Shown here piece after piece: positions 26,280-64,000 of a stretch of 64,000 nucleotides of DNA. The stretch is from Psammoneis japonica. Lineage: Eukaryota. Both the position numbers and the translations under genes were made by a program. The notes beneath the pieces are model-generated. The model was not told where the DNA came from. It made no database searches and saw nothing but the letters and a program-made list of their open reading frames with translations. How positions within the stretch are numbered: the stretch's first letter is position 1; every line of letters begins with the position of its first letter. The stretch covers positions 35,332 to 99,331 of the forward strand of contig QPGO01000180.1 of NCBI GenBank assembly GCA_008632985.1. The letters are read 5' to 3'.

Positions 26280-27190
26280 TTGGTGAGCCATGGAACCAAG
26301 TCCCGGAAAAGATGGGCAAAGACACAGCTGAGTGCAGAAGCACAAAAGAATTGACAAAGGAGTGGGTGCATGATGCAGTTGCCAAGTCATGATGACAGGC
26401 AGATGAGCACATGGAAACCACAAAAAAGATTGGCGCACATGTGGGAAGAATGTTTGGGCTGGAGATGATGAAGCACTGGTGTCTCTGAGGCAGGAGAGAG
26501 AATGCCAGAAGAGCCAGATTGTCCATCAGGAGACACCGCATCAGAAAAGGACAAGCCAATCTGGGGCAAGAAGCACAGTCAATGTGTGAAGCAGAGTGCA
26601 GTCTGCAAGATGCGGAAGGCACAAAGGTGTTTGCTGCAATCATGGGGCAATGCACGAAGGCAACTCATCACAAGCTTGAAGGAGTTGTGCAATTTGCAAG
26701 AATCACAGAGGAGTGGGACATGACAGCACTGCTAAGTGTTCTCTCAAGTTGATCTTGTTTGATGCAAATGAGGAGACAAACCCGCACATCCAGGTGGTGG
26801 TCAAGGCTTGGAGGCAATTGGCGCTGTTGGCACTCATTTGTCAAGATGAAAAGGAGGTGCTTCAAGGCTGTTTCAATCATTGGTTCATGAGCATGGTTGA
26901 GATGGCAAAAACATCCTGTGGCAGGATTGTCCCAGAAAAAATTGCCAAAAAAGAAAATGGGTTTGGCAAGGATGCTGATGGCATCTGGTGGAGCAAAGAG
27001 AGGAACAAGTCATCAGCAGTGATGCACCCCAATTCAGCTGAGGAGGCACCATCACAGGTGTTGGAGGACACATGTGGGGCACCCGCAAAAGCCTGAGGAA
27101 GGCATGAGTTTTGCACAGAGTGACAAGAAAAAGGTCACATGCTGGAAGTGTGGCAAAGTTGGACACATGAGGAGAGATTGTCCTGACAGT
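26280..27190 (+). mobile_element. Degenerate LTR-retrotransposon gag remnant
   Basis: KVFAAIMGQCTKATHHKLEG (diatom Copia-gag-like) and zinc knuckle CWKCGKVGHMRRDCP at ~27140-27185; frameshifted. Confidence 0.75.
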
Positions 27191-27199
27191 GATCATTTG

Positions 27200-30100
27200 T
27201 TGGTGGAGTCACACAATGTGGACCATGGGAGTTGACAGAAAGGTCAACATCGTGTTGGGTGGCATGATTTCCAAGTGTCATCCTCTCATGCTTGATGCAC
27301 ACAAAGTCAATCAATTGACAACTTGTGTGAGGGAGTGTGTTGAAACATTGGGGCTGGGGGGTGGCTTTCATTGTGCGGATGGGAGACAGAGTTGCAGTGT
27401 GAGATGTGGCAACAATTGTGGACAACGTGGCAAGCTTTTGCACTTGTAACTTGGATTCAGTTGTGGGTCTTGTTCTCACTTTTTAGCTTCTGCAACTGAG
27501 TGGCATGCTGATGACAGTTGACAACATCAGCAGTTGATGTGTTTGCAAGCCATGTGGCGGTGAGCAGGGAGACAGTGAGACCAAACACGTGCCAGCTGGG
27601 AAACTTCAAAGCTCCAATGTGACATGTTTCTTTTCTCACTTGATGACAATGACTTTCTTGGTCCATTTGTAAGTCCATGTTGACAACAGCACACCACTCT
27701 CTGGCAAGAATGTGCTCTGGCTCCTCTGATGACTTTTTTGTGTGCTTCAAAGCACTCCTGCTGGCAACATGTGGCACAGCTGCAAGATTGAACAAAAAAT
27801 GACTCACCAAGTCACTTTGACAGGTTGAACAACACAAATGAGCAACAAACAATTCAAGTTTGGTGGCAGAACAACTTGCAAATGCTGCGCACAAATTGTT
27901 TTGTTGTCAGCCATGCCCACATTGTGCCAGCCACAAAAAAAAGCAACAGCTCCGCACACTGAGAGAATTCACTGTGCTTCTCCATGGTTGATTGAAAAAG
28001 CTGGCTCTTCTTGCCCATCTTTGTTTGTGTGTGCTTGACTGGTTTGTTGCCATGCTGCAACACTTGTGTTGCTTCTGTGAACTGGGTCTGGCGACAGTTT
28101 GTCACACTGGGGTTTTGGTTTTGATTGACAAGTGAGGCAAACAAGCCACAGATTTTTTGCTGCAAGGCTCAAACTGCTTTGCAGCTAAAAAAAAAATTGC
28201 AGCTTTTTAGAGCCACCATGAGGCAGGCCCTGGTCTGAGATGAATCAAACTCCGCATCATCAACTCACATGGAGGCAGAGCAAATTTTTGTCAAGGATCT
28301 GTGCTCTTGAGAACTTGTCAAACTTCGGATGCCACAGCTCTGAGATGCCACATTTGCCGAACACTCTTCCTGATGCTGTGTCTGCACCTTGTTGTTGGTT
28401 CTGCCATGACTGTGGCATGTAGAAAGAATGACAGCCACCCCTCAGCATGCAAACCTCTCCCAGGGACAGCTCCAGAAACCCTGCAGCACAAAAAAGGGGC
28501 AATGTTGAAACACAAAGCACAGCATGCAAAGAAAGTTGAGAGGACACAAAAAATGTGCAAAACCTGGACCCCCCCCCCTTTTTGAATTTTTGCCACAATC
28601 TTCCTGCATGAAGCCAAGTGTTCTCAAGATCATCTTGCCTCCCCCCCCCATGCTGTGTGATGCACCAAATTCTTCCACTGAGAACATTTGTGGTCTGTGT
28701 GTTCTTTTGACCATCAATTTGAGCCATGAGCCAGAAGAAAAAAATCACACCAACATTGTTCCACAAGGAACAAGATGTGCTGAATTTGCATGGACTTGGG
28801 TTGCACTGGGCCACATGGAAAGGTAGAAGAGCCAGCCAAAAATGTTGGAGCACCTGCCTGGGGCATTCCCAAGCACCAAGCCCAGCAGATCTGCCTCAAA
28901 AGACCCAGACATTGTGTCCCGCAAGGCTGGCATCTGTGCTGACTCTCAGTGCAGCACATTTGCACTTTGCCGCCAGCTTCTTGGTGCTCATCCAGCCAAT
29001 TTTGTGCCCCAATTTGTTCCATCATCTTTCATTGGCTTGCAAAAGGTCTTCTGCTGCTTGTGCTTGCCACATGTGTTGCAGTGGACTGCAGCTGTGAAAA
29101 CATCAAGCTCCCATGTGCAGCATCTTTCAACTTTTTTGCAATGAATGCACAAAGTGCATGACGCCATGATGCCAGCGTCAGGGCATTTCCTGCATTCTCC
29201 AAGGCACCAAGCAGACCAGCCTGTCTGTCCATTGATCCCCACAGGCTCCATCAGCTCTTGTTGGTGCTTTGGCATGACTGCTCTGGTCTGGGTGCAAAGC
29301 TCTGTGCCTTCACCCCAATTGCAAGATTGCAAGATTGCACCACATGAAAAACATCAGCACTTCACAGTTGGTTGGCTTTCTGCACAAAAAAAAAAGACAA
29401 TTTGACTGGCTGTCACACTGCTCACCAAGCTGTCACTGTCGGTGTCACCAGAGTTTTGGCAAAGAAGATGGACAACAAATTTGGAACATGTCTTGACACC
29501 CAGAAATTTGCAAGTCAGTGGCAGTCCCTGGCAAATTGCAGCTGGCAGTTTCTTTTCTGATCTTTGTGTTTTGCCAATGCAGGGAGATGTTTTGGCAACA
29601 AGATGAGTTGACTTGACAACTTGCATTTTCTTGTGGGGGTGTGGGGGTCGGTTGAGTGAACTCTGGTGGTCCAACTCTCTGCATTGGGTCTGATCCACTG
29701 ACTCATTCTTTGATTTCTCTTTGTGACAGCTGGCTTTCCTCACAATTTTGGCTGTGGCAAGAGAAGAGCAACTGGTGCTTTTGATGCCATTTGAGGCTCT
29801 GTTCATCTTGGGACAAGGTGAGGCAAGCAAAGCTGTTTGCTGGGTGGGTCGCTGTTGCTCTCAATGATGCTCCAGGCTTCTTTTGGTTTGGGACAAGGTG
29901 AGACCAGCAGTGTTTGCTCAGTGGCCCTTTGTTTGCTGGCACTGCTCTGTTTTGATCACCAGTTGTGGGTGTGGGTGATGTCGACAATTCTGCTCTCTGT
30001 CTGGGTTTGTTGTGTGCTTTTCTTTGTTGCTGCTCTTGTTGTGATCATGAGTTGATTCAACCAACAACACAGCAATTTCTGGTTGATGCCAGTGCCCCTC

Positions 30101-31780
30101 ATTGGCTTTTGGCTGGCTGAGGCACAAAGCTCCAGACAGAGATCATCATGTGTGCCAAACCTGTGCCCAAAAGAGGGGAAACACAGGAGAAGTTCAGCTC
30201 ATCTTGCTCTGCCTGGTCAAGGAGCAATGCCGCACACACCTTGGTTTTTGCATGGCTGACAGGCCCTGGTGCAGATTGCTCTGCACAGCTGCAAGTGGTG
30301 GCTGCCCATTTTCCACTCTTCTTGAACAGGTCATCACACCTGAGAAGATTTCATTGAAGCCCAGCTTGGGGCAGTGTTCAGAGCATGCCTTCTCTTTGCA
30401 GTTTGCACTGTCCCTTTGTTTTTGAAAATTGCAACAACTCTGGAGGAAGGTCCTGTGCTGCTGTGGGGCCAAAAGTCATCTGGTCCATGGTGCCTCTGGA
30501 AATGGTGTGTCAGACAAAGCTGCCAAGTTCCTCTGGTTGTTGCTCAATGACTCTTTTGCCAATGTGTGGTGTTGCTGCAATGTTTTTGTGTGCTGTGGAG
30601 GGTACAGCAAGAAGTTGTTAGATTTGTCATCACAGCCAGTTTGTGCCTGAATGCCTGGGTTTTGCTGTCCATTTGCAGTGCTTGTCTTGAAGTTTCCCCC
30701 CTTTCTTTTGCCACACACACTTTGAGGAGGATCTCCCATCTGACCATGTGCCAAGACTTCATTGTCTGCTTGGCAAGAGGGCTTGAAAGTGCACTTTTCT
30801 CACTGGCAAGTTGTGGTGGCTTTCCCAGGCTTGCAGATGCTCTTCTTGGGTTGTGCTTGCAATGCTGCAGGTTGTGCTGTTCTTGTCAATCTTTGCCTGG
30901 CACATTTGTGCTGAAGTTTGTCCCATCTTTCTGTCACATCTTTTCAGGCTGGAACGTGCTTTTTATTTTCTTCCTGTTCTTTGCAGTGGGCACTGCAATT
31001 TTGTTGCTTCCATTTTTGCAGCCACTTGCTTGTCCCACACACATGAGAGAGATGCAGGCACTGATGTCAGAAAAACAAACCAGAAGAGCCAGAGTGTTCA
31101 TCAGCCAGGCAACGCCACATTGGAGAAGGACAAGGCAATCTGGGAGAAGCAATGCAACAATCACCACATGAAACACAGGGCATGATCTAGAAGACACAGA
31201 AGGCAAGGGCATTTGGCACAATTGTGGGACAGTGCACAAAAGCCATCTGCCACAAGGTTGAAAGAGTGATGGAGCTTGAGTGGGCTGCAAAGAGAGAGAT
31301 TGGGCAGCACTGTTGGAAATTCACAACATTGGGAATGACTTGAGTGATGCAAAGGGAGCACTGGCTCTGACTGAGGGTGGGCGACTGCAGGCTTTTTAGC
31401 CTTGACAGTGTTCCTGGGCATTGTGGAATCTTCTAGATTGTCCTTTTTCTTTCATCATGGCAGCTGCAGCATCAGTGTTGTCAAAGAATTTTTGGATGCC
31501 TTGCTGTTCTTCCAGATTGGTTGCTTTGTGAGGGGAGTTTATCTCGGCTTGAGCTGCTGCCTTCTTGTGGGAGGACGGCACACCCTTGCATCTGGTGCCA
31601 CACAAGTCTCAGGTGCCATGGTGATGTTTTGATGCTTTTTCTACATTGGAACCAATGCTGCTCTTCACAGTGCTGTCGACGACTTTTTCTCAATGTGATG
31701 CACCCCAGGTTGCAGACAATGCAGGGCTGGCATGAATTGTTTGCAATGCTTGCAAGCCACTCATTGCAGTGGTTTGCACT
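27200..31780. mobile_element. Mosaic of heavily decayed repeat-derived sequence, families not identifiable
   Basis: Near absence of TpA and CpG; flanked by recognisable TE remnants; no motif I can assign. Confidence 0.5.
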
Positions 31781-31782
31781 TG

Positions 31783-32175
31783 TCTCTGGAGATGTCATGG
31801 ACATTCTGATTTGAACAGGTTGCAATCCTCCTTGCTGCAACAATGGGAAAAAGCATGCCTCAACTGTTCTTTGTGCCCCTGCCAGCATTCTTTTCATCTG
31901 CAAGCAGCAGTGCATGCAATGTCTGTCATGTCACAATGACAAAGTCACCTTAAATCCTCACCATTCGGCTGTGCAATTTGGCAGCACCTTCCTCAATTTC
32001 CCATAAAAACCAGTGGCATGCAACATTCAGGTGGGCATTCATCACCAACAAACTTTCCGTCACAGCAGGCAGGCTTTTCACTGGTGCAACGGGCCGGCCA
32101 AGACAGCCAGCTGGCCACCCTCAGGGTCTCCCATCCTCCCATCACACAGATGTGGGTTGCCCTCTGTCATTGTCC
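31783..32175 (-). pseudogene. Mutated paralogous copy of the 3' end and downstream region of the gene at 35569-36564
   Basis: Aligns with 35344-35740; encodes PACCDGKFVGDECPPECCMPLVF versus intact PGYCDGMFVGDECPPECCMPVVF. Confidence 0.85.
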
Positions 32176-32559
32176 ATGTGCCCATGCACCTGTGGCTGTG
32201 TTGCTGACACATCAAACCAGGTCAACGATTTTGGTGCATCTCCTTGGCTCAATCATTGGCTTTGGCGCTGTCCCTTTGCAAGAGGACGGTCAATTGTGGT
32301 GTGATCTTCTTGGTGCAACTGGTCACAAATTGGATCCTTCCACTTTGTTGAGTGGATGTTCACAGAGGATGGTGAGCCACGTCTGTGTGCCTGCAAGGGT
32401 GAGCTTGACATCAAGATGTGCACAGCTGACTGCACCACCAAACAGTCCAGCACACAGCTTTCTGCACATTCACCACACAAGACCCTTGGCCACTGCAAGG
32501 CTCCAGTGGGTGCTCAAAAGGATCAGTTTAAATCTCTCAAGAAAAAGAGCAATGGCACA

Positions 32560-35290
32560 GCTCTGTTTCCATGCTCATGCCCATTGGACCACAACAAGGC
32601 ATGGACCCCCACTGTTTTGCTTGCCACCTGTCTTCAGCTGCACATGTTCTTCCAAGTGCTCATTTTTGACTGATGAACTTTTGGAGGTGCAGTGGAAGGT
32701 GTTGCGTGCTGCAACCACAAAGTGCAGATGCAACTGCAATGCCAAAAGAGATGTTGTGCATGGCCCATGATCTTTGGACAGTGGCAGTTTGAGATGATTG
32801 GACATGGAGCAGGGTGTTGCTCTCAGGTGTTGCAGTTTCTCCAATGGCTGCTGGCACAGCACAGGACAAATGCAACTTCTGTCACACATTGCAGTTGCAC
32901 AGATGGAGCTTTGTTTGGGCACCAGAGCCAGCTTCCTGAACAATGTGCATTCCAAGCTGCTGCACTTGGAGTCAAAATGGCCCATGTCTCTTCATTCCTT
33001 TCTTGCTTGCATCAGCGCCTGTGCCAAATTTGATGAGACTGTGAAGCTCTTCCACTGCAGCAATGCAATGGTCAGCACACCATGGATGCAGTCTTGGATT
33101 CTCTGGTGTCTTCTCTGACCACAAAGTCCACTGGGTGAGCTTCTGCCACCTGCACCTCTGAGCACTCTCTGCACCTGACATTGCACTTCTGAACAGATGC
33201 CACATTGACAGTGTGAAGCTGCAAAGTTGCCATTCTCTCATCTGGCAGCACCCACACATTGAGCCTGATCAAACAAGCTTGCCATCTGCTCATGCTTGGA
33301 AGCCATGGCATCACACCACATGCTCTCTGTTTTTTTGTGAGGGTGACCTCTTGGTGTCACAACACCCACTGAGGCAGTGGCAAGCTCTGGCTCCAGACAT
33401 GCACATGTCCTTTTCTGCATGCCACAAACCATTGAAGCAACTCTCACACATTTGTTCATCCAAAGGTTTTGATGTGTTCTCCATCATGATTGACAGCATT
33501 GTAGATTCTGTGGTGCAGCTTGAGTTGGCTCTGGAAGTTTTTCTTTTTGCATCTCCCTCCTGTCATGGCCAATGCCATTTGAGATGGCCAGTGGCACACA
33601 TGAAAGCTCAACTCTCTTGTGCCCCCACTTCCTGCCATCCCAGCCCCTGGTGGTGGCTTTCATGATGTGTTGTGTTTGTTGCCCAGGTGGGAAGCTGCGT
33701 TGTTCAAAGAGCTGACTTTGCACACACCAGCACTTGACAAGCTTGCAGATCTTCTTCTGTCTTCCAAAGCTGTGGTTGGGAGCAACAGCCCAGTCATCTG
33801 GTTTGGCATTGTCAAACACTTGCAGTCAATGGTGGTCCTTTGGTGGATTGTGTTGGCTCTGTTTTTGGCTTTGGGCCTTCCTCTTGCCATGCAGAAGCAA
33901 GCAGATTGCCACCTTTCCTTGCATTCCTTTTGTGAGTGAAGGGCTGCTTTCAGACAGTGCTCTTGCTTGGAGTGGATCTGCACTGTGACAACTCCTTGCC
34001 AATTCAAAACATTTCCAACTTTCACTTTGCACTTCCTTTGTCTGACAAAGAAGAGTCCTTCTTCGATGCACTTTGGCTCCACAGTGGGGTGCACTCATGA
34101 GGAAATTTTTTGCTCCTTTTGACAAATGGCGGCTTTCTCCATTGCAGGCAAATCCAGCACTTTTGTGTCAGCTCATTGGGTCAAAGGTCATGAGGACAAC
34201 ACTGTGCCTTGCAAGTTTCTGTCCCTTTCTGCCAAATTAAATGTTGAAGCTGATGGGCTGGCTGGCAGATGCACAGGAGCACACAATGGTGACACACCTT
34301 GCTGACACCTCACATGCAATGCTGCTTGGCAAGTTTGGTTTTGCGAGAGTCCTCCATCATGTCCAAATGCAAACCTGTCCTCTGGCATGAAGCTTGCAGC
34401 TTGGCACTGATTGAATGCATGACAAAGAAGTGTGCTGGCTGGCCAAGGAGGCATTTCCTTCCATCAACCGGAATGTGCACTCCAAACTCATGTCCTGCAA
34501 TGTTCACAGAAAGGTCAGCATGGTCAAGCTGGCTCAAGAGTTGCTGTCTGCAAACAAGGTTGTTCATTGATGCAATCTTGCTTGTCTGGATTGCTGCATC
34601 CACTGCCAGCATCCGATGGAGAACAGCGATCACAGAATGTTCCTTCAAGGCCTTCAAAAGAAATGTGATGACATTGACACTTTCCTGCCATTGAATGATT
34701 TGCTGTTGACAGCTCTCAAGTCTTGGCTTTGGGAGGAAATGTCATGCCCCAACAATGCACACACCACAGCATCTTTCCAGTTTTTGATTCTCAGGATGGC
34801 ACTGGCTGAAGACACATTTTCAGTGGCATTTTTGCACTTCTTGGAATGAGACTCAAACTGCACATCCAGTGGCCAGTGGCTGACACCAGACCCAGTTGTC
34901 CAATGACAAACAGTTAGATTGGGCTGTCACCACTGGAAGTTTTGTGTGGTCAAAGTGGTGGGACATCTGGGATTCCCACAACGATTCCATTCACAGTCAT
35001 GACTCTGAAACTCGGAAATCTTCTCAACGACGCAATGCGGAGGCTGAAGTCAAGACTTTTCATTCTTGTGCTGACTGTCACTTGGCAAGGGATGGAGCAC
35101 ACTTGTTAGATTCTGTGGAGGAGCACCTCACTCACTCCACGCATCGGTTGCGTAATTGGTTGGCTGTGGTGAAACCCATGTTCAAGTCGAGCATTCGTGA
35201 CGCTCGACGCTTCGCTGCTAGAGGCACTCGAACCATCGCTAGTTATTTCGGCGCGGCATCACCCGTGGGTGATGCCGATCCTGGCTACTG
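32560..35290 (+). mobile_element. 3' portion of a decayed non-LTR retrotransposon carrying RNase H
   Basis: RDVVHGP...LDMEQG (post-RT motif); RNase H C-terminus HWVKGHEDN...LNVEADGLAG at ~34174-34266; WDIWDSHN and terminal TIASYF...DPG. Confidence 0.75.
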
Positions 35291-35568
35291 TAATTGCTAT
35301 ATGCTCCTGCCGCACATTCGTGTGCTGGAGGTGTGGGTTAGAATCTCTAGAGATGTCATTGACATTCTGATTTGAGTAGGTCGCAATCTACCTTGCTACA
35401 ACAACAGGAAAAGGCATTGCCTATAAGTTACAAAAGCGCATCTTCATGCCCCCACCAGTGTTCTTCTCCTATACAAGCAGCACATGCAATGCCAGTCCTG
35501 CTGTACTAACAATGTCCCTTTAAATCTTCACCATTTGGCTGTGCAATTTGGCAGTACCTCCCTCAACT

Positions 35569-36564
35569 TCAAGGAATAAATACTACAGGCATGCAACATT
35601 CAGGCGGGCATTCATCACCTACAAACATTCCATCACAGTAGCCTGGCTGGTCACCGATGTAACCGCCCAAGACAATTATCGGGCATTCAGGGCCTCCCAT
35701 TGGCCCATCACAAGGATATGGGCCGTCTATTCCTATTGTTCCGCCAGGAGCAACCAGGAAGCGGTGTGTCTTAAAGTGGGGTTCCGAAAGCGCCGAGAGA
35801 AAGCGGTGGCGACGAAGCCTACTCGAGCCGTCGCCATCGCTGCCATCGTCCCCTCCATTACAGCGATTATCTTCCAGTAGAAAACAGGCCCTTCCATTTC
35901 CAATTCTCTTGACGCACACATGAGTCGCGTTGACCGTCACACCATCTCCAGAGAAGACATAATGTCCAAGCACGCTCCCTTGGCTATCAGGAGAGTTGAT
36001 GAGAGGAACAGTCATTGAGGAAGTGGTTCCGGAGAGCAAGGCGTTGTAGAATGTTCCTGCTGTCGATGCAAGCATGCACTGGTAGTCAGGAAACGACTGT
36101 TTAACCTCGATCGTCACAGTGTGACCAACTCCTTCTACCTTGACAATCTCGCCTGAGCTGGTTGTAACTAGATGAGCTTGAGAGTCGGTCTCCGTGTCCT
36201 TTTGAAGCTTCACCGCCAAATAGGCTGTCCCGATGCTTGCCGCGGCGAGCATGACTGTTAAAACGGCGAAGAAAATCATGAGCTTCTTGTATTCAGATAG
36301 CTTTCTCTCAACTGCAAGCTTGTCCTCGACGATCTTGGCAACCTTTTCCTCCGTGAGAAAGCCTCGTTGCGATGTGTCATACCTGCGCATTTCAGATTCT
36401 GTGCGGTCCAGGTAGCCCTTATTGTCACGATCATAGCGCTGAGACGTAACAGACAAGCGATCCGAAGTTCCACGACTTTCCACATCACCAACGCTCGGGA
36501 GAGGCTTAACAACATCATCAACCTCCTCCTCGTCTTTAGTATCTTCTTTGGGATCGTAGTCCAT
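35569..36564 (-). CDS. Hypothetical single-TM protein with EF-hand-like N-terminal repeats and a Cys-rich C-terminus
   Basis: Intact 331-aa ORF with normal Tyr/TpA content; YDRDNKGYLD and YDTSQRGFLT; TM LMIFFAVLTVMLAAASIGTAYLAV. Confidence 0.8.
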   Translation of the reverse strand: MDYDPKEDTKDEEEVDDVVKPLPSVGDVESRGTSDRLSVTSQRYDRDNKGYLDRTESEMRRYDTSQRGFLTEEKVAKIVEDKLAVERKLSEYKKLMIFFAVLTVMLAAASIGTAYLAVKLQKDTETDSQAHLVTTSSGEIVKVEGVGHTVTIEVKQSFPDYQCMLASTAGTFYNALLSGTTSSMTVPLINSPDSQGSVLGHYVFSGDGVTVNATHVCVKRIGNGRACFLLEDNRCNGGDDGSDGDGSSRLRRHRFLSALSEPHFKTHRFLVAPGGTIGIDGPYPCDGPMGGPECPIIVLGGYIGDQPGYCDGMFVGDECPPECCMPVVFIP

Positions 36565-36922
36565 CTCACGGTAGGGCGTTCTCCAATTTCAAGACGAAAC
36601 CTGTGAAATATGGTGACAGGTGAACCCAAAAGCCAAAAGGTGAGCTTGGCTTGAGGATACTTCGCGTGAGTATGGTATCTTGAAGATCGCAACTTCAGGG
36701 ATCTTCTCGGAATTTTCTTGGCATTGGCATCCAGCCATCTGGCATGCATCGGTCATCGGTCATATTGCTGTTTGAGGTAAAAATGTCACAGGGTTCGAGA
36801 GAGAGAGGTGTTTCTCTTTTTTTTTTTTTTTTTCTTCGACAACAATCTTCCGGGTTCCTCTCAATAGTCACGTAGAATCGTACACAAAATAAGTGCTAGA
36901 ATTTACAATCGAGGATCAAAAC

Positions 36923-39200: not shown

Positions 39201-39433
39201 ACTGGATGTTTGCCAATCAAGTTGTTGCCACTCAAAACTGGCTAGAGCGTGCCACTCGATGCGATGCGATGACACAAGCAGAGACCACACTAGACTTGAC
39301 TACCCAACAGACCACACGACACAACTGAGCTAGAGACTGGCTAGACTGTGCTGCTCGACACGACACCACTAGAGACTGGACTGTGCTGCAGGAGATGACA
39401 GCACTCGAGATTGGACATTTGCTTCTTGGGCAA

Positions 39434-40579: not shown

Positions 40580-40749
40580 TGTTTCTGATCTTGTGGTGGC
40601 TGTTTCTCAAAATCTAGTGCTCATTTTGTGTGCGATTCTACGTGACTATTGAGAGGAACCCGGAAGGTTGTTGTCGAAGAAAAAAAAAAAAAAAAGAGAA
40701 ACACCTCTCTCTCTCGAACCCTGTGACATTTTTCCCTCAGACAGCAATA

Positions 40750-53400: not shown

Positions 53401-56400
53401 CCGTCCTCCAAGGTTCGCCCACTTTCTCCACAATGTCTCTTCCATGCAGACGGCATCAAAGGACATTTTTGGGGTGACAGTGAGATTTTCAAGGTTTGTT
53501 TCGTAGACACGCCGGAGTTGACGCTCGAGTGCGACGAGCGCTCCCACTTGCCGGTTGGCTGCGCGACTCTCGGTTCCATCCATGCACCACAAGTCAATTT
53601 GAGCGCCATTGGCAACCCAGACAACCTCAATCTGTCTGCTGGACAGAAGCTTCTCAATGAATGGCATGCGCGCTTTGGGCACTTAAATTTTCCCAAGATC
53701 CAAGCTCTGCTCCGCGGCCATCCATTCGAGGCCATGAAATTCAAGGCAGCATCCAAATGCGACATTCCAAAATGCGACACATGCGAATGTGCCAAGGCTC
53801 ATTGCCGTTCTTTGAAGTCTGCCATTCACAAATCCGACCCCAAGCGCGATGGAGTGTTGAAGGCTGACCATCTCAATCCCGGCCAGTCCATCAGCGTTGA
53901 CCATTTCGAATCGCGTCTCAAGGGCCGCACCTGTGATTCACACGGCAAACCGTCCTCCCAGCAGCATGTTGGCGGCTGTGTCTTTGTCGACCACTCCTCT
54001 GGTTACATCCACGTTGAACACCAAGTCGGTTTCTCCGCTGTCGAGACTGTTCGAGCGAAACAGGCACATGAGACCATGGCAATGGGACACGGCGTGATTG
54101 TCCAAACTCACCTCACTGACGGTGGCGCTTTCAAGGCCAACCAGTTCGTTTCCCACATCCACAACTCCCAGCAACACATGCACTTTTGTGGTGCCAACGC
54201 TCATCATCAAAATGGTGTTGCGGAACGCTCCATTTGGTCCATGTCCAACATGGCTTGCGCCATGATCCTCCATGCTTCGATTCACTGGCGTGGCGGCATC
54301 GACAGCTCTCTGTGGCCCATGGCAGTGCACTGTGCTGCCCACATCTGTGATGCCACTCCCGGCGCCCATGGTCTGTGTCCCGCCAACATCTTTGCTGGCT
54401 CCACCGTCCCACGCCACCGCCTCCGCGATCTCCATGTTTGGGGTTGTCCTGTCTGCGTCTTGGATCCCAAATTACAGGAAGGCAAGAAACTTCCCCGTTG
54501 GCAGCCGCATTCTCGGCGTGGTGTCTTTCTTGGACTCAGCAATGTTCACATCAGTGAGGTGCCATTGGTCCTCAATCTCAACACTGGCTCCATTGCTCCC
54601 CAGCACCACGTCGTGTTTGACAATCTCTTCACCACGGTTGCTTCGATCGCGAGGGAGAGCGAATCGCCGGATCACTGGGAAGAATTGTGGTTGGAGAATG
54701 CCACTCAAATTCCCTTGGACTCGTCCGATGGACCGTTGTTCCTTCAAGACGACTGGCTCACTCCTGCTGAACTTGAACAGAAACAACAACATGAGACCAG
54801 GGAACGCAATGTTTGCACTGCACTTCAACAGCAGCAGAGCTTGCCGAAACCCACTGAGAAACCAAAACCTGCAGCAGATCCTTTGCCATCTCCAAATCCA
54901 CCGCCATCCACACCATCGATGCCAACAACTGCAGTTGATCCATCACCGACACCACCGCCACAAACACCGTCGCTTCAAAACCCATCATTGCCGACACCTC
55001 CAGTTGACGATCCTCCACCTTCAGTCGTGTGTCCGCCGTCTGCTGCTGGCAATGGTCCGGCACGTCAGTCCCATCCATGACTGCTCCAGTCCCACCTGAA
55101 CCCTCAACCACGACTGAGACACCAGGGGTGCGCTGATCCCAACGGTCGAACAAGGGCACGCACACAACTGCTTGTTTCGCTGATGAAGCACATCTGGCTT
55201 CTGTCATCCCTGACGATGTTGGAGACAACAGGCTCAGCTTGCCCATTTGGCTGAGATCCAGACTGACTGTGATTCGGGTGTTTTGGATGTTCAGGACCCG
55301 CGGATCTACGCCGCTGAGGTCAAACGCGATGCGGATGATCCAAACATTCGCGAGGCTCTCTCGGGTGATTTTGCCAAGCAATGCATTGAAGCCATGAAGA
55401 CGGAGGCATCTGCTCTTGTCCATCGTAAAACGTGGCAATTTGTGAAATGGGAGAAGTCAATGAATTTGCTCAAGTCCACATGGGCATTCAAGTTGAAATG
55501 ATTGCCGGATGGCACGCCGCTTGAGTTCAAAGTGCGATTTTGTGTCCAAGGAGATCTGCAAAAAGAGGGAGTTGACTGCTTTGAGACCTGCACTCCAGTG
55601 GTCCAATGGTCGACTGTCCGTCTTGCATTGAGCACTGTCCCCACAAGAAGGATGGACCACCCGTCAGGTTGATTGCACCAACGCTTTTGCGCAGGCCGAG
55701 ATGATGGAAGACGTTTGTGTCGAACCACCCAAGTGTTTCGCTCCCAGCTCGGGATCCAATGTTGTCTTGAAGCTGCTCAAGAGTCTCTGCGGTCTCAAGC
55801 AAGCTCCCAAGTGCTTCTTTGACAAGCTGCATGAAGGATTGTTGGAACGAGGATGGACCCAGTCGCAAGTCGACCCGTGCCCATTTTTCAAGGACGGTGT
55901 GATTTGTGCAGTCTGTGTTGATGACACTGTCCTCGCTGGCAAGAATGGAGCCGCTCTAGAAAGTGAGATCAAGGCTCCAGGCATCCAAGACGACGAACAA
56001 CGCCATGCATTCGAGTTGCGAAATGAGGGAGAAGTTGGTGACTTCCTCGGTGTCAAGATTCGCAAAACCGGACCCAAGGAATTCTTCCTTGCCCAGCCTG
56101 GACTCATTGATGAGGCCCTCAAGACAGCTGGTGTGGAAGATTGCCGCTCTTCTCCCACTCCCAGTGCTGCCTCTCCATGTCATGCGGATAAAGAGGGAGC
56201 CGAATTCGACGAGAACTGGGACTGCCGTTCCGTCATCGGCATGTTGATGCATCTGTCATCCAACTCCCGACCAGATGTCTGCTGCGCCACGCATCAAGCC
56301 GCCCGCTTCTCATGTGCTCCCAAGCATTCTCATGCGATTGCGGTGAAGCATGTTCTGCGACACTCACAAGGTGCCAAGGACAAGGGACTCTATCCATGCC

Positions 56401-56962
56401 CTGGCGACAACGAATGTGTTGGTTGTTTCGTTGACGCCGACTTCGCCGGCCTCTGCGGTCACGAAGACACTCAAGATCCGGTCAGCGTCAAGTCCCGCAC
56501 CGGACATGTCATCTTGCACTGCGATTGTCCTGTTTTGTGGGTTTCTAAGCTACAGACGCAAACAGCACTCTCCACTGTGGAGGCCGAGTGCCTTGCTCTG
56601 TCGGCTGCGATGCGCGACCTGATTCCGATTCGTGAAATTTTGAAGGAATTCAAGTGTCATGTTTTCGGTCTCACGGATTACAAGACCCCTGCCACCACCA
56701 AGTCCAAGGCCTTTTCAGATGTAAAGGATGGTGCGATCCCTTCTTCAGCCTCAAGTTTGCGAAAATGGCCAAGTTGTCTCCACGCACCAAACACATTGGC
56801 ACGCCCTGTCATTGGCTCCGCACCAAGGTCGAGGCTCTTGAGATCCGGATTGAGCCTGCAGGAACTGATTCCCAGTTAGCTGATCAATTTACGAAGGGAC
56901 TCATTGCTGACAAGTTTGAATCTGGTCGGCCAAGTCTCTCAGGCTGGCAGCTCTGTGGTTGA
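50431..56962 (+). pseudogene. Copia gag-pol with stops and frameshifts
   Basis: Zn knuckle CNACGAPDHW, protease VVFDTGAS, WHARFGH...CDTC, integrase SVDHF/HQNGVAERSI, RT STWAFK/KVRFCVQGDLQ/CVDD, RNase H FVDADFAG/LSTVEAE/QLADQFTK. Confidence 0.93.
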
Positions 56963-56969
56963 GAGGGAG

Positions 56970-57164
56970 AGTTGACGTCTGTCAATCCACCTGTCAACTG
57001 TGCGCAATCGCGTGCTTCAATTTTCAAATTCCGCCATCAAAACTCTGCTCGACATTGCAGTCATAATTTTCAGTCAACGACTTTTGCAACAACAACAGCT
57101 GCCAGTTTGCAACCTTGAGCATCAGCTCTTTTGACATCTGCAGTTGTACATCGGTGTGACAAGT
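56970..57164 (+). repeat. 3' LTR
   Basis: Follows the PPT directly; followed by TSD CACAT. Confidence 0.95.
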
Positions 57165-57743
57165 CACATGGGCAATGTCAGCATGGTTTTTCAATCCATT
57201 TGCTGCTCTTTTTCATGGGTGCCCATTTTGGCCCCTCTTTTTTTGCCGCTTTTCGGCCATGGTCATCGCCTTTCCTCTCGGCGTGTCAAATTTTTTCCTC
57301 CTCTCACCGAGATGTGCCATGTGCAGATGTGCATGTTCACATGCTGTGTTGCATTGGATGCACCACAGTTGTTTGGCCGATGCTGATTGTGTGCACACAC
57401 ATTCATTCTCGGGAGGGTTCAGTCAAAACGAAAATTGTCACCACGTTTTTCGGAGTTTTCTCGTTTTCCCGCAAAATGCGTGCAATCACGATGATGAATG
57501 GTGATGGAAACCGACCCGTCACATGGGACCAAATGTTCGATTCATCCTTGTCTTCATGCATTGGACAAGCGTGGGAATCGGGTGGGGTTGCGTTCGTCGG
57601 AACCGACACAATGTTGGTCAACGCTTGTCCTTCCTGAGCAATTTCACATGCTGGTCGCTTTCACTTTCCAGCGTGTTTGTTCTCACTTTTCCTTTTTTCA
57701 AGATTGGACGAGCCTTTGTTTTCCGACATTCTGTTGTTCCACC

Positions 57744-59948
57744 ATGAGCCAAGCCCATGTTGCTGCCATCAACCATGGCAAGCTGTCTGCCCTCCTCATG
57801 GGCATGCTCGAGTTTGTCTCGATGACGGACCGTGACACCCAGAAGGAGCTTCGTGACCATGTCTTTGCGACTTTGGACCTTTTCTGCATGGTCCACAATC
57901 GCAAGATCACGGTTGTGGTGAAACCTTGCCCCAGGCAGCACACTGATGGGAACTTGAGGTGGATTGGGAGCCTCTCGGATGCGATCGGTGAGGTCATTCT
58001 GATGTCCGGCCGTTGGACTTGTTTCCAAGGCCACGTCACCACTTTAGTTCCCCAAGGCGCCGTGGATGCTTGCCACCTGCCCAAGTGTGAACTAAGCCCT
58101 GACGAAATTGACGGTCCTGTTGGCAACGACGGGACTGGTGACCCTGCGTCGATGGGTCGTCTCCATTTTGGGAATCCTGCTGGACCGGCCGAGCGCCCTG
58201 CCATTGTTGCGCTCCCGCTTTTCCCACCATTCCCTGTGGGCATTGCTCTTCCCATTGACTTCGACCCGGCAAATCCCCCAGCATCCCTTGCTGCTAACTT
58301 TCTGCTTGGAGCGGCATGGGCTGAGGGTGTCGACTGGTTGCTGCAGCACAACACTTCTGTCTCCGTCATGGAAGGTGGCCCTGTGTTTGAGCAGACTGGC
58401 TTTGCTGTCATTGATGAATTCTCTGGTCTAGAGGTCTACAATCTCGATGACAACGATGTGCAGATGCTCCAGCCTCTAACGGATTGGTGTGCTCTAGTCA
58501 AGAGCACGATGGATGCCTTTGCGAATGAGACTTGGAGGCAGCTCGGTGGTGACGAGCCTGCGCATGCACAAGCTCCTGCCGCTCCAGCTCAGGGCACCAA
58601 CGGTCTGGTCCCAAACTGTGCCATCAACATCCCTCGCCAGGATTCGAAGAAGGAGTTGGATCAGAAGTTGAGGGCACGTGATGTTGGTTGCCGCTGGTCT
58701 CCATGTGCGTTCCGAGCGACTGCTGGCACTGGTCCGGAAGACCTGCCCATGATCATTGTCGGCGAGCTTGCGGACAATGCAGTCAAGATCCTACAAGACA
58801 CCTCGGCAGCTGATGCCAACCGAGACCTTGCGGACCTTGTTAAGATGGCTGTTGTGGCTTCGGCTTGTGGTGACAGTGGTCTTGATGCTGGAGTCGACTG
58901 CAAGCACACCATTGTCAACAAAGCCCACGCGGATTGTTTCCGCGGCTTTGACGTGGTTGCGGAGCCTCCGCAGTGTGGCCAGGCTTCTTGCCACATGAAG
59001 TTGTCAATCCTCCCCTTCCTTCTGCCCCAGACTGCATCATCTTCCTTTGCCAGCCTTGAGGAGGAAGGAAGGACGCTCCATCGGGTGCTTGCTGATGGAT
59101 CGGACTGCAAGATCCCCGACGACGTGAAGGCAAGCGACCTTTACATCCAAGGGAGGATGGATGCCACCAGCGATCTGTGGTCGGCACTGTGCAACTTTCG
59201 TTGTGTCTTCGGCTGTTGGATCAAAGACTTTGATGATGCCGAGTCATGGCAATCATTGGATGCATGTGCGAAGGTCCTTTGGTCGCATCCTGGCCACACG
59301 TGGCTCAAAAACCTTGAGGACCCGAAACCAGTCGTTGCCAGCATCCTGGATGATTTCCAGACCATTGTCAAGGTTTATTTCGAGATTGGGGACTCCCCAT
59401 TGTGCCGCCAGGTGGTTGAAACCGAGCGCCCACTGAGCCATCAGATTGCGAAGGACGCTCATGCTTCAGTTGAGTCCCTCATCGCGGATCTCAACACGGC
59501 CATCACACGGGGCAAGCCTCTCACCTTTGCTGAAGCGTCTACATTGGCCCTTGTCCCTCTGGGCAGTTCCATGTTGCCCCTTGCTGGAGACAAACAGGAC
59601 AAAAAGACCAAGTCCGGTCAACCTCCTAAGAAGAAGCCGCGCACGGAGGACACGACCGACAGTGCGGCCGAGCTCTGCAAGGCAATGGGCATGCTTGCTT
59701 TTTCGGGAACGAGGTGCCCTCCTGCCTGTCCAGTCTTTTATAAGAAGAATGGATCAGACCAGGAGGAACGTGTTTGCATGCATTTTTGTGCTGAAGGATG
59801 CTGCTGCAAGTTCCCTGACTGCCCGAAGCCACACCCATCACCGGTGTCCAAGATTCCGGAGGCAAAGCGAGACGCCTTTTGCCAATTTGTCCGGGACACC
59901 CAGGGACTCGAATTCGTCCCAGGAAAGGGCCCAGATGGTGCGTCATAA
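57744..59948 (+). pseudogene. gag-like ORF1 of the YR retrotransposon with a C-terminal CCCH-like finger
   Basis: Long ORF, likely start MSQAHV; ends CMHFCAEGCCCKFPDCPKPH; lies directly upstream of RT. Confidence 0.7.
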
Positions 59949-60070
59949 ACACATTTGAAGCTCACAGTTTCTGCACTGCCCCTGTTGCTAATTCAGTGTT
60001 GTTTTAATCTGTGCTGTCAATCTTTTGACCAGTCTGTGTTATCCCGGATGGGTCAGTTTGTCTCATTGCA

Positions 60071-62932
60071 ATGGACACAGACGACGACAGCAAACCGGAG
60101 CATGAAGTGGTAGATGCAGAGTCAGAGGAGGCCGGAATGAGCATTGAGGATGCTGTTCCAGCCACAGATGCTGCGCTTGCCACGTCTGTGACGGAACCAC
60201 ATCCGAGCCTACGTCGGCTTGCGGTTGCGCCGACGGCACCCCTCGAAGAGAGAGAGTTGGTGGAGCCATTCCCGACTTTTTCGTTGGTTCATAAGAAGAA
60301 GGGTGCGGATTTGATCCCAACCATCAACAATGGTTTCAACAAGGCAGCTCATGAGCACTTTGCCAATGCGCAACTGTCTCCAGGGGTTCGCGCCAAGTTG
60401 GACCAAAAATTCGGCAAGGAAAATTTGAACCAATGTTTTGTGTCCAAAGCCTGTCTGCGTCATGTGCTGTTGCCACTCTGGAAGTCGGGACACCTGTCAC
60501 CACCAATCAAATGCATGAATCCTGCGTCTGCCAGCATCCATTTTGGTGAGGATTGGTTGAATTTTGGCGCCGCTGTCCCGGAAGTGGCTGAGTTCATGGG
60601 TCCAGTCCAGGAGTGCGGCGATGTTGACTTCAACCCGTTGCGTGGCTGTCCCAAAGGGTGGCAAATGGAGGCTAAAGTCAACACTGACCAAGCAGCAATG
60701 ACAAGTGCAGCACTGTTGCACTTCGACGGAGACCCGGCGAATCTGGTCCGCTGGGTTGGCGGACCACATGTTGGCGAACACCGCGACACAGACAGAATCC
60801 TCCGTTTCACACAAGGCCGAGTCCCCAACGAAACAACAGCACATGTCCGCCGCATCTTCCAAGACGGGGCGCCAGCGAAATGCAGTGCTGCTTTCTCGGA
60901 AGCCAACTTTCAAGCAGCCTTGCGCCATGGCAACCACAAGACTGTCGACGCAGATCCTGCAAAGACATCGTCAGCAGTTGTCAAGGACAATCGCAAGGGG
61001 TTCACATTGCCATTTGACCAGCGGCTCGTGCCGCACTTGCTGAATTGCCATCTAACTCCACAAGGAATGGTGGATTTGGACAAGAAGCACAAAAGCCCGC
61101 ATCCAATCTTTGACAGCACGATGCGCCCGACACCGGGCGGCATGGCAATCAACGACACGCTAGATCTGGAGAATGAACCTCCAATCACATTCCCATCAGC
61201 TGAAATGGATTTCATGGTGTGGATGTGGAACATGAGGATCTCATGCCCACATGAGGAGATTTGCCTGGGGACGATGACGTGAGTGGTGCGTTCCGTAACA
61301 TGAAGCATCACCCGAACCTCGTCGGCATGCACACCAGCGTCCAATGCGGACCAGGCATCCTGCAAATGGGTTGCACCTTCGGGGACAAGACAAACCCGCT
61401 TGACTGGGATGCCATTGCAAATGCAAGGCAATCCCCAGCTCAACATTTTTGGCGTGTTCCCAATGTCGTCGAGCCAGCTCATCAGTGCCTGCCGACCATG
61501 TCGTTTGCAAAGCAGCCCACTGCCAAGGAGATTGCATCCTTTTCTCCCGCGGAAGCCGATGCTGTTAACCCTGGAGTCTTCCTTGATGACCATCGTCTCC
61601 CGCCAACCTGTGAGCACCATGTCGACGACAACTTCTGCGGCGACATGCGCGACTTCATGGAGCGGACCGTCGCGGCGAGTGCTTTGGCGGTCTGTGTCCC
61701 ACTGAGTTTCCCTCGGAACGAGACACCTGATTTCCTCAGCAAAGAAAAATTGGATGCGCTCCATTCACATTTGCGAAGAGCCTTGGGCCGGCATTTCAAC
61801 TCAAGAAAGATGTCGGTGGGCATGTCACCGCACAAACGGGAACAGTTCCTTGAAACACTCCATGAGTGGCTCGGCAGACAGCGATGCACACTGCTGGATG
61901 CAGCAAACCTGCATGGTCAATTTGAATCCCATGCAAGGCATTGCCCATGGGCTCGACCCCATTTTTTTGCACTCCAGAACTCCATGGGTTGAGCGATGGT
62001 CATCCAGTGCACCATTGTGAAGCGCATCCTCGAGCGCCAAAATTTGAAATCAAATTTTGAAACTCAACTGCCGAGCCAACTGCGGAATGGGCTGCCGAGC
62101 TTGCTCATGCATGCCCAAGCCCAGCTCCTCTACAAGTTGAAAATTGAGACCCCGATGACCTCCGATGCATTGGACATGATCAAGGAAGTGACATCATACA
62201 TCCAATCAACTCCAGACCCATGGTCGGGCACCGACAGGATGCGTTGTCCCTCGGGTGCCCCACTGCCAAGCAATTGGAGACACCAGCAACGTCGGCGGAG
62301 GTGCCTGTTGCTGCAAGCTCAAATTTTGGTTCGCTTTTCTTTGGGGACCAAAAATCGCAAAGGGTCTCAGGCTGCGGAAGTCAACGGATCTGGACTGTGT
62401 CCATGTCAATGCAGTGGAGTTCATTGTCATCATGCTCAAGTTGGCAGCCATTGTCGTTTGCATGGAGAATGTGACTCCAGAACGGGCGCATGAGTTCTTC
62501 CGGGACGGCATCGTCCCACTGCATCTGGTCATCAGAAGTTGCTCAGATGACATGGCATCAGTCAACCGGACAAACAAAGCCACTTCGAAGTCGCCACAAG
62601 GGCAGCGATTCATGTGGGTTTTTTGTGAATTGCTGCATCATGCGCGTGCAAACCCAAATGGCGATCACATCTTTGGCAACGAGAATTTTGTCACAGATGA
62701 CATCTCACGACCTTCTGTTTTTGCCCTGATCTCGAATCGTCACCATTCTGAACAGCTGTTTCGGAAGCATCCCTTTCTGAAGACCTGGGACTGTTTCCAG
62801 CCGAGTCAAGAGCTCTTGCAGCTCCTCTCCTCACAGCTGTCTGCCAAGCACAGAACGGCACCCCAGATCCCAAGCAACTTGGGACAGCTTGTTCCCACCA
62901 AATCCATTTCCTCCACTTTTACAAGAGTGTGA
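60071..62932 (+). pseudogene. RT-RNase H of the YR retrotransposon, frameshifted
   Basis: PIFDST, DDVSGAFR, TFGDKTNP, HHVDDN; RNase H IGDTSNVGGGA, HVNAVEF, SDDMAS, DHIFGNENFVTDDISR over four ORFs. Confidence 0.88.
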
Positions 62933-64000
62933 GGTGGGATCTAGAAGATCCGGAAATGACTGTGGTTGGCAAGGACCTGAAACATTGCCAATTGGTGCCA
63001 GCTGTGCATGCATCACATCTGGCAACCGGGGCCACCCTGCACTGTAAAAATGTTTCTACAGGTGCCATCAAGGAACACATCCACAACGTCTCCACGTTCG
63101 TGTCTCTGTTTGGTTCCAACTGTTGGGACGTCCGCAAGGACAACAGTGTGGACACCAAAATGGGATGGATCCTCAGGGGAGCATTTGATGAACTCCAACG
63201 GCACGACAAGGTCCCGGACCGACGTGAGTCGTGTGCATTGCTTGTGCAACAACATGCAACTTCAACAGCAGCAGACATGCGAGAAACCGACCCCGACGCA
63301 ATTGAGGTGGTCCTCGCTGACTGGTTTGAGATCGGCCCAATGGCAGGCCTGTGCAGTGTTGAGTGGGCACAGTCCAATGACCACTCAGACCTGGAGAATC
63401 CCAGGCTCAACATCTTCAAGGAGACATGCGCGTTCTGCCTCGATGATGTGCGCATTGAGACCAAGGACAAGCACCAACACTCTGGGGCTGATTGCCTCAC
63501 CCCCAAGCAAGATGACATCGAGAGCATGTTTGTCACATTTCGAGACCAGAAGAACCAGCAACATGGCGAGGAGTGCCAGCTCGCCTTGAACCTCACGGGC
63601 ACTCACGACTTGGTCAAGCCAATGCTTTGCGTGATCCAATGCTTTGCACGGGTCCGTGGTGAAGATGACAAAACCTGCCCCCTGGCACTCTGTTTTGATC
63701 CCAAGGAGAACAAGTGCCGCCTTGTGACATCCAAGAAAATTGAGGCCCGCGTGCGCCAAATTGCAGCAGAGGTGTGCCACCTTGACCAGGTCAAGGATAA
63801 AAAGGCTGTCAGCAAATGGTCAGCACATTCCCTCCATGTTGGAGCCTGCAACATCCTCCATGAGATGAATTTTAGTGCTGAGCAGATTAATCAGCTGCCA
63901 AGATGGCGATCCGACGCCTTTGTGGCGCACCTCCGTAACTGCTTGGGTCTCTCTCAGGCCCATTGCCGAGCCCTCGATAAAGCGGCACCTGTGCCGTTCT
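62930..64000 (+). pseudogene. Tyrosine recombinase with mutated catalytic residues, open to the window edge
   Basis: Manual translation: AGLCSVEW (cf. GLR.SE), SAHSLHVGA (cf. HSLRVGA), RWRSDAFVAHLRN (cf. ..YLR). Missing from the ORF track because there is no stop. Confidence 0.9.

Follow-up and report, generated by a model that had tools for sequence, protein, structure and literature searches.

Flank-dependent erasure of TpA dinucleotides from mobile DNA in the diatom Psammoneis japonica

Hypermutation of foreign DNA that is specific to TpA and directed towards GC is known so far only from one 2026 preprint, on the chlorarachniophyte Bigelowiella natans (bioRxiv 10.64898/2026.01.13.699255). 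The main text of that preprint (Mettrop et al.) reports that in mutation-accumulation lines two viral inserts acquired 231 de novo mutations, 230 of them A-to-G or T-to-C changes, all at TpA, that these mutations were confined to some of the lines, and that the DDE and RT (reverse transcriptase) Pfam families are enriched in clusters and coding sequences poor in TpA and rich in CpA and TpG. An adenine deaminase, with an ADAT2-like candidate, is proposed there but unproven, and the main text gives no flanking bases beyond TpA itself (bioRxiv 10.64898/2026.01.13.699255). Here we analyse 64,000 nucleotides of the diatom Psammoneis japonica (GenBank assembly GCA_008632985.1, contig QPGO01000180.1, positions 35,332-99,331, forward strand), which we call the window and number from its first letter. 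It contains four blocks of mobile or repeated DNA, among them a Copia retrotransposon and a DDE_3 transposon, that have lost nearly all of their TpA (TA) dinucleotides, and the loss depends on the bases that flank the TA.

The present case shares four sequence-level features with the phenomenon in B. natans, namely TpA specificity, direction, action on both strands and restriction to mobile DNA. As far as the main text of the preprint describes it, TpA alone is affected in both organisms, with TpG and CpA as products on both strands; in both, only foreign or mobile DNA shows the loss of TpA and gain of CpA and TpG, and the affected stretches have local boundaries; and in both the bias is towards GC, the opposite of ordinary mutation. 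The differences lie in the host (a diatom, Stramenopila, here; a chlorarachniophyte, Rhizaria, there), in the targets (Copia, a DDE_3 transposon and unclassified repeats here; giant-virus and virophage inserts there) and in the extent, which is near-complete here, with a TA rho of 0.03-0.14 in sub-regions of the blocks according to dinucleotide tables, whereas the main text of the preprint gives a Rho of 0.45 for the insert of a nucleocytoplasmic large DNA virus. They also lie in the kind of evidence, since the mutations in B. natans arose de novo in lines, whereas ours are read from sequence alone. Finally, a flank rule at positions +1 and +2 is defined here, unlike in the main text of the preprint. 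The diatom host and the flank preference are new, and full-text searches of a literature library found no report of TpA-erasing hypermutation in diatoms.

Repeat-induced point mutation (RIP) turns CpA into TpA and thereby makes stop codons. It resembles what we describe in being a transition hypermutation of repeated or mobile DNA at a single dinucleotide, on both strands and with sharp limits at repeat ends, which inactivates the elements. RIP consists of C-to-T changes in duplicated DNA of fungi (PMC3318451). The sign in the window, however, is the opposite: TpA is lost, CpA and TpG are gained, TAA and TAG are erased, and long meaningless open reading frames (ORFs) are left. Fungal RIP, with its excess of TpA and loss of CpA and TpG, is therefore rejected as an explanation.

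The coordinates of the blocks and of the features in them are collected in the table below. Between the blocks the host background has a TA rho of 0.56, and the host genes have a normal tyrosine content; across the four blocks CpA and TpG are elevated to 1.4-2.0, and by sub-region the CA/TG rho is 1.38-1.85. Block edges are sharp to about 100-500 bp and coincide with element ends. Around block 1, TAs stand at 13818, at 13961 and 13993, and then at 15466; at block 2, a TA at 26192 is followed by the next at 26733, and at the far end one at 34915 by the next at 35107. An earlier inspection of the letters without database searches (the sequence-only reading) had treated 26400-64000 as one range. 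Depleted blocks do lie within it, but so do two stretches of normal TpA, 35091-37047 and 44367-49872, and block 1 lies outside. The loss is specific to TpA and limited to mobile DNA, and adjoining host genes are untouched. AC, AG, GA and GC are unchanged in the blocks, and the other dinucleotides fall within about 0.1-0.3 of the references, except for CG in some blocks. ApT is little changed (rho 0.69-1.03 in the blocks, 0.92-0.99 in the references). For AA/TT the blocks have a rho of 1.15-1.31 and the references one of 1.07-1.17, so that the sequence-only reading was right that poly-A runs persist, and the WA signature of polymerase eta is rejected.

Decay of CpG by deamination of 5-methylcytosine also feeds CpA and TpG, and it overlays the older blocks here: the CG rho is 0.11-0.41 at 13944-15415, 26286-35090 and 40750-44366. 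In Copia and the element that follows it, however, the CG rho is 0.69-0.80 although the TA rho is 0.09. Because these two elements have lost TA and kept CG, TpA erasure can be separated from CpG decay as a layer of its own, and the two may differ in age. The depleted families occur in many copies, the contig depth being 260-4650 against 62 for unique DNA (depth and copy data come from the Logan contigs of one source sample), which suggests about 5-75 copies of each family. Repeat status is nevertheless insufficient for erasure, because the stretch directly upstream of the Copia 5' long terminal repeat (LTR), 48707-49735, is also multi-copy (depth 727-851 against 62) and yet normal in TpA, with 22 and 14 TA per 500 bp.

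The direction of change can be read from a sequence of about 380 bp that is present in the window both in a mutated and in a non-depleted copy. Twenty TAs of the normal copy correspond in the mutated one to eight CA, five TG, five other dinucleotides and two retained TAs, which lie in TTTAAA and AATAAA; the reverse change was never seen, since wherever the normal copy has CA or TG the depleted copy lacks TA. On insertion, an LTR retrotransposon has two identical LTRs. Those of Copia now differ at 13 of 194 sites, and all 13 differences are transitions, 12 of them at pyrimidine-purine (YR) dinucleotides, including three sites with TA in one LTR and CA or TG in the other and two with CA in one and TG in the other. 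The coding sequence tells the same story. The 966-residue ORF of Copia has one tyrosine (0.1%, compared with 1.7-3.7% in 51 homologs), with 6.0% histidine and 4.7% cysteine, and at nine columns where tyrosine is conserved in 28 homologs it has one tyrosine, four cysteines (TGY), two histidines (CAY) and two other residues. Its single tyrosine is the GGT TAC that the sequence-only reading had picked out; the tyrosine codons that it listed elsewhere are likewise the only four in the 816-residue ORF of the next element (CTT TAC, GTT TAT, TTT TAT and GTC TAC) and the only two in the RT ORF (GAT TAC and CTC TAT). Both strands have changed, with a TG/CA ratio of 0.87-1.29 in all blocks and of 1.00 on the coding strand of Copia. 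The conversion of TA to TG or CA has thus affected both strands, has taken place in DNA and is at least partly later than insertion. Since both strands are affected, a DNA transposon is among the targets and the LTRs diverged at TA after integration, RNA editing followed by reverse transcription is out as the main cause.

The few TAs that survive are not a random sample of those that were lost. We estimated the ancestral number of each xTAy context as the number of all xYRy now in the blocks multiplied by the fraction of xYRy that is TA in a reference, because transitions keep a YR dinucleotide YR. As reference we took either the host DNA of the window (host proxy) or 399 kb of metagenomic sequence made up of 78 related Copia loci that are unmutated (Copia proxy). 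The individual survivors cited in the sequence-only reading are all present (GCTAAG with its TA at 26733, TTTTAG at 27484, CTTAAA at 31951 and ATTAAA at 34238), and its summary that survivors are mostly TTA/TAA or TCTA/TAGA is borne out by 114 of 135 survivors (84%), compared with 636 of 1262 background TAs (50%). Taken separately, TTA/TAA makes up 75 of the 135 (56%) against 499 of the 1262 (40%), and TCTA/TAGA 51 (38%) against 173 (14%).

Equal survival over the ten strand-symmetric NTAN classes, the outcome that would have spoken against context-dependent loss, is rejected with the host proxy (chi2 65.3, 9 degrees of freedom, p 1.3e-10) and with the Copia proxy (chi2 82.3, 9 degrees of freedom, p 5.6e-14). 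Loss is unequal also when the blocks are divided, with p 1.5e-4 for block 4 and p 8.6e-12 for blocks 1-3, and the order of contexts is identical everywhere. Survival is lowest for ATAC/GTAT and ATAT (0.005-0.012), followed by ATAG/CTAT and GTAC (about 0.05), by ATAA/TTAT, CTAC/GTAG and GTAA/TTAC (0.08-0.14, with CTAC/GTAG at 0.11-0.13), by TTAA (0.14-0.17) and by CTAG and CTAA/TTAG (0.23-0.28).

These differences are captured by a half-site model, which gives a TA two flanks, one for either strand, each read on the strand in which the A is the base that changes. A scan of positions singled out +1 (p 1.4e-6) and +2 (p 9.7e-7), where A occurs in 49% of survivors and in 28% of the background; positions beyond +2 and -3 did not differ from background (all p >0.2). 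TA followed by a purine and then A (TARA) is the protected half-site: survival is 0.34 for TAGA and 0.21-0.24 for TAAA, as against 0.013-0.05 for TACT, TATC, TATG and TATT. With the Copia proxy, survival rises from 48/1122 (0.043) for sites without a TARA half-site to 74/332 (0.22) with one and 12/20 (0.59) with two; with the host proxy the values are 0.052, 0.25 and 0.54. In a block bootstrap the extremes do not overlap, survival being 0.021 (0.006-0.044) for sites with a pyrimidine at +1 on both strands and 0.59 (0.26-0.96) for those with TARA on both. Relative to uniform loss, the difference in Akaike information criterion (dAIC) is -95 to -112 for a rule with three classes at +1/+2 (purine followed by A, purine followed by another base, pyrimidine), compared with -54 to -63 for a rule of purine against pyrimidine at +1. 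At least one TARA half-site is found in 87 of 135 survivors and in 27% of background TAs, whereas R-TA-Y, with a pyrimidine at +1 on both sides, accounts for nine of 135 survivors and 30% of the background. Twelve survivors are doubly protected (seven TCTAGA, three TTTAGA and two TTTAAA), where some 20-22 such ancestral sites are expected. Isolated survivors have a TARA half-site somewhat more often (41 of 56) than the other survivors (46 of 79), but with a p of 0.10. TpA loss thus depends on the flanking bases at +1 and +2.

The products of the lost sites tell us on which strand the flank acts. Lost TA-Y sites have mostly become TG-Y (share 0.51-0.75), whereas most lost TA-R-A sites are now CA-R-A, and in five of six analyses a share of at most 0.22 had changed on the strand that bears the flank. 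Likewise, in each of six regions TTG is a far commoner product of TTA than is TCA. As survivors are not used, these product shares are independent support for the flank rule. In a competing-risk model of survivors and products together, +1 is preferred to -2 with either proxy (dAIC -153 against -11 with Copia, -96 against -26 with host), and the fit ranks the bases at +1 as T, C, G and A, with a beta(+1) of 0.44-0.54 for A and 1.5-2.7 for T. The base that precedes the T in the edited strand (-2) is therefore rejected as the main factor, except in block 4 with the host proxy.

The explanation that we consider probable is that a post-insertion process acting at the DNA level on mobile DNA converts TpA to TpG or CpA, with T-A-Y as its hot and T-A-R-A as its cold context. 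Mobile or repeated DNA would insert in the diatom genome and then be mutated at TpA alone, an A-to-G change on either strand giving TpG or CpA. The fastest loss would be that of TA followed by a pyrimidine, with TAT no slower than TAC, and TA followed by a purine would be lost more slowly; T-A-purine-A (TAGA and TAAA, or TCTA and TTTA on the opposite strand) would be lost some 6-15 times more slowly. A TA would then survive mainly where one strand, and especially where both strands, bear a poor flank, best of all in TCTAGA, TTTAGA and TTTAAA, while R-TA-Y sites such as ATAT and GTAC would come close to extinction. The chemistry may be enzymatic deamination of the adenine in 5'-TA-3' to inosine, which is read as G, along the lines proposed for B. 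natans; the flank rule would be the enzyme's own substrate preference, and the process would presumably serve as genome defence.

Several points weigh against this explanation. The ancestral TA frequencies are proxies, taken from host DNA or from 78 distant Copia loci and not from true ancestors; AIC presumes that sites are independent and so overstates certainty; and the whole context analysis rests on 134-135 survivors, some of which may be new TAs that arose from CA or TG. In block 4 with the host proxy, +1 does no better than -2 (dAIC -17.8 against -22.6), and the own-strand product share of TA-R-A is 0.63 and thus not low. For a 5' C, the split between TG and CA is inconsistent among blocks (0.28-0.80). 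Half-sites combined multiplicatively fit survival slightly better than half-sites combined additively (negative log-likelihood 152.6 against 154.7 and 152.7 against 156.5, dAIC about 4-8), which strictly independent events on the two strands do not predict, so that a duplex-level component of recognition is conceivable. The natural context of TadA is UACG or TACG, and the survival of TACG, at 0.16-0.20, does not favour a plain TadA-like specificity. Lastly, the data name no enzyme and fit adenine and thymine chemistry alike. As to TACG, its 18 half-sites stand out from the other TA-C-N contexts (0.013-0.097), and their survival might reflect interference by CpG methylation or be an artefact of normalisation.

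The ambiguity between adenine and thymine chemistry is the basis of the alternative that survives best, which we nonetheless regard as unlikely: the T of 5'-TA-3', not the A, would be modified in silenced DNA, for example oxidised to 5-hydroxymethyluracil (5hmU) by an enzyme of the TET/JBP type, and would mispair with G to give T-to-C. Because TpA is palindromic, the thymine-centred version of the rule (R-T-A hot, T-Y-T-A cold) fits all the counts as well as the adenine-centred one. Dinoflagellate DNA contains 5hmU enriched at TpA and in repeats, which counts for this alternative. Against it, the present data hold no evidence of thymine modification, and the sole experimental precedent proposes adenine deamination, itself unproven according to the main text (bioRxiv 10.64898/2026.01.13.699255).

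Somewhat less probable still is that nearly all ancestral TAs are gone and that the survivors are recent TAs, created by C-to-T or G-to-A changes preferentially in T-Y-C-A and T-G-R-A. With about 6360 CA and TG sites in the blocks, ordinary transitions must create some TAs, and TG-R-A in blocks 1-3 has not gained, or is even slightly deficient, as such creation would have it. Yet the products of lost sites follow the same flank rule without any use of survivors, and survival of the TARA class is equal in block 4, where CpG is intact (0.268), and in the CpG-decayed blocks 1-3 (0.275). Nor is there, as noted above, any CA or TG of the normal ~380-bp copy that has become TA in the depleted copy, and the sole tyrosine retained by Copia sits in a column where 64% of homologs have tyrosine. 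A steady state with uniform creation of TAs also fits worse (negative log-likelihood 170 against 153-156).

The rule put forward in the sequence-only reading, that an enzyme acting on double-stranded DNA recognises a palindromic V-TA-B (V, not T; B, not A) and thereby spares TAs that follow a T or precede an A, now seems improbable. It has a true core: 3' A (5' T on the other strand) is the least favourable single neighbour, as the product model also finds for A at +1; VTAB is under-represented among survivors (60/134 against 763/1267, odds ratio 0.54, p 6e-4); survival is 0.066-0.078 for VTAB, 0.13-0.16 with one T or A flank and 0.14-0.19 for TTAA; and the slight advantage of multiplicative half-sites is what one would expect of an enzyme that reads the duplex. 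On the other hand, 45% of survivors are VTAB, its classes are only about twofold apart, and the bootstrap intervals of the one-flank class and TTAA overlap. Survival within VTAB runs from that of ATAC/GTAT and ATAT (0.005-0.012) to that of CTAG (0.23-0.28), and CTAG and CTAC/GTAG survive about as well as TTAA or better. The dAIC of V-TA-B is -11 to -14, far from that of the +1/+2 rule. V-TA-B also omits +2, a position as significant as +1. Both survivor classes had been seen in the sequence-only reading, but the rule drew on one of them and left out TCTA/TAGA, the strongest signal. Its step from strand symmetry to an enzyme of double-stranded DNA does not follow, since an enzyme that strikes either strand singly gives the same symmetry, and the products are mostly strand-specific. 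The supposed echo of N6-methyladenine at ApT, which in eukaryotes has a VATB context, is not supported either: that mark resembles the present case in that it is set at a two-base A/T palindrome and excludes certain flanking bases, but here TpA is the affected step, ApT changes little, and the flank rule is one of R or Y at +1 plus A at +2, not of V and B, so that ApT in a VATB context is rejected as the target.

ADAR prefers a 3' G, and the A-to-I editing of mRNA by fungal ADAT (TAD2/TAD3), also an A-to-G change after U, tolerates or prefers 3' purines. In the blocks, G at +1 is not favoured and the 3' preference is for a pyrimidine. It is highly improbable that ADAR- or ADAT-like A-to-I editing of element transcripts, fixed through reverse transcription, produced the pattern, even though two of the elements are possibly retroelements and the preprint likens the U before the edited A to ADAR hyper-editing (bioRxiv 10.64898/2026.01.13.699255): such enzymes act on RNA, whereas the DNA transposon and the unclassified blocks are affected equally, the two strands are about equally changed on the coding strand of Copia, and the LTRs of a single insertion diverged at TA after integration.

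Table. TA-depleted blocks, elements and sites in the window (O/E, observed-to-expected ratio; TIRs, terminal inverted repeats)
Feature	Position	Strand	Details
TA-depleted block 1	13944-15415		4 TA, O/E 0.043; CG O/E 0.24; CA 1.69, TG 1.96; unclassified
TA-depleted block 2	26286-35090		22 TA, O/E 0.038; CG 0.11; CA 1.94, TG 1.77; 8.8 kb
TA-depleted block 3	37048-44366		43 TA, O/E 0.089
TA-depleted block 4	49873-63786		66 TA, O/E 0.090
Mutated copy of ~380-bp sequence	31783-32156	+	74.6% identity over 389 columns to 35344-35722
Non-depleted copy of the same sequence	35344-35722	+	gives direction of change
DNA transposon	36763-40749		142-bp TIRs (36763-36904, 40609-40749); 764-aa ORF (+)
DDE_3 transposase	39434-40579	-	Pfam E 6.4e-14; within DNA transposon 36763-40749
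TA-depleted region with internal repeats and ion-channel-like fragment	40750-44366		TA rho 0.03, CG 0.41, CA/TG 1.84
Ion_trans_2 fragment	41173-41706	-	Pfam E 8.6e-8
Copia LTR retrotransposon	49736-57164	+	LTRs 194 bp (49736-49929, 56971-57164), CACATG at both flanks
Unclassified TA-depleted element with 816-aa ORF	57165-63786	+	TA rho 0.09, CA/TG 1.51
Doubly protected survivors	TA at 28208, 31188, 31434, 32529, 38415, 39128, 39186, 40103, 51063, 55957, 58429, 62942		
Example TCTAGA survivor	31186-31191		TARA half-site on both strands

The blocks hold elements of several kinds. Copia carries the Pfam domains gag_pre-integrs, SH3_retrovirus and RVT_2; its LTRs are 93.3% identical, its TA rho is 0.09 and its CG rho 0.80, which is about normal for CpG. 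In a protein search its nearest named relatives were from Fragilaria and Nitzschia, and near-identical paralogs were not found by that search, the best match having 63% identity over 21% of the query. For the 816-residue ORF of the following element, no Pfam family was found at E <=5 apart from a chance-level match to Torus, and the one homolog found, at 28% identity, has no Pfam annotation. The label 'YR element' that the sequence-only reading gave to 57165-64000 is neither confirmed nor excluded by Pfam searches (46 ORFs at E <=0.01 and seven at E <=5) and the homolog search.

The TIRs of the DNA transposon are 93.7% identical, its depth is 262-519 against 62, and its interior (37048-40608) has a TA rho of 0.14. 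Its ends are rich in TA, with 11 TAs at 36763-37017 and four in the right end, 40609-40749; they were either spared by the process or retained by selection for transposition. The region that follows it has internal repeats at 40816-41542 and a depth of up to 4658. This maximum, against 62, is reached at 42704-43370, a very high-copy short repeat within the depleted block, and around 43111-43601 the contigs show numerous loose ends and internal joints. The Ion_trans_2 fragment overlaps 41301-41761, a stretch with cover by an RNA-like contig, and may be a piece of a host gene captured or duplicated by a repeat. Block 2 is unclassified repeat or mobile DNA; none of its 15 ORFs has a Pfam match, nor has any of the five ORFs of block 1.

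Copies of 36701-56700 among the contigs are in many cases diverged, with 250 A>G, 251 T>C, 303 C>T and 325 G>A differences and 32-45 of each transversion. Of 25 transitions looked at among the 40 places listed out of 1473 variable ones, nine are such that the window has CA or TG where CG stands elsewhere, and two, at CTAGAG and CTAATC, are such that it has TG where TA stands elsewhere, counts that are anecdotal.

As for host DNA, 45254-48465 shows two convergent, intron-rich host genes: 15 joints, each 72-112 bases long and bounded by GT..AG (or CT..AC), are listed there in contigs of run X2, which is filed as 'DNA?' and behaves as spliced RNA, so that parts without X2 cover carry no meaning. 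An alcohol-dehydrogenase-like host gene at 20700-21944 has its closest named relatives, at 70-75% identity, in the diatoms Cyclophora, Synedra, Nitzschia and Seminavis. An atlas query likewise pointed to Bacillariophyta, and a second one, with an OGFOD2-like sequence, gave no signal for any taxon.

Erasure also affects how such DNA is annotated. Because TAA and TAG are erased and TGA stops alone are left, long open frames appear in dead elements, and 78 stop-free stretches of at least 130 codons overlap the blocks, in several frames at once. The length of an ORF in these blocks is consequently no sign of function, and spurious frames can extend host ORFs. The RPAP1-like host ORF at 22085-26371 (- strand) has a 5' extension into 26200-26371 that is probably due to stop erasure. 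The near-total loss of tyrosine from element proteins, in turn, blinds profile searches.

How widespread the process is can be gauged from relatives of Copia. A scan of metagenomes with a Copia alignment gave 79 loci, only one of which shows TA erasure, whereas no relative was retrieved from the metagenomes with the single Copia protein as query, and a scan of viral contigs for Copia relatives found none. The exception (L069:1-2158, 2158 bp) is a Copia relative of 37% identity with a TA rho of 0.01, CA/TG of 1.65 and CG of 0.36, in which a single TA is left; the same erasure has therefore occurred in one further sampled genome or population at least. No tyrosine-poor protein was found among 51 Copia homologs. 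Since one of 79 environmental relatives is erased and none of the 51 homologs is poor in tyrosine, TpA erasure seems to be uncommon or restricted to particular lineages.

Even so, a near-complete signature in diatom transposons suggests a system that is older or wider than one lineage, and one that would operate in a main primary producer of the ocean. The flank rule amounts to a biochemical prediction, as it names the oligonucleotides that ought to be good or poor substrates for a candidate deaminase or thymine modifier, and it predicts the sites that mobile elements could keep. It is tempting, if rather speculative, to see here a 'reverse RIP' in diatoms as in chlorarachniophytes, a defence by DNA editing with a four-base code in which sites of the TCTAGA and TTTAAA type are escape sites. 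We know of no natural adenine deaminase acting on DNA that has been described as a cellular system. If this view is true, the enzyme could be such a deaminase, and the flank code would be an assay for finding it; and if the same code is present in the de novo mutations of B. natans, one enzyme family would stand behind a defence that extends across SAR (stramenopiles, alveolates and Rhizaria).

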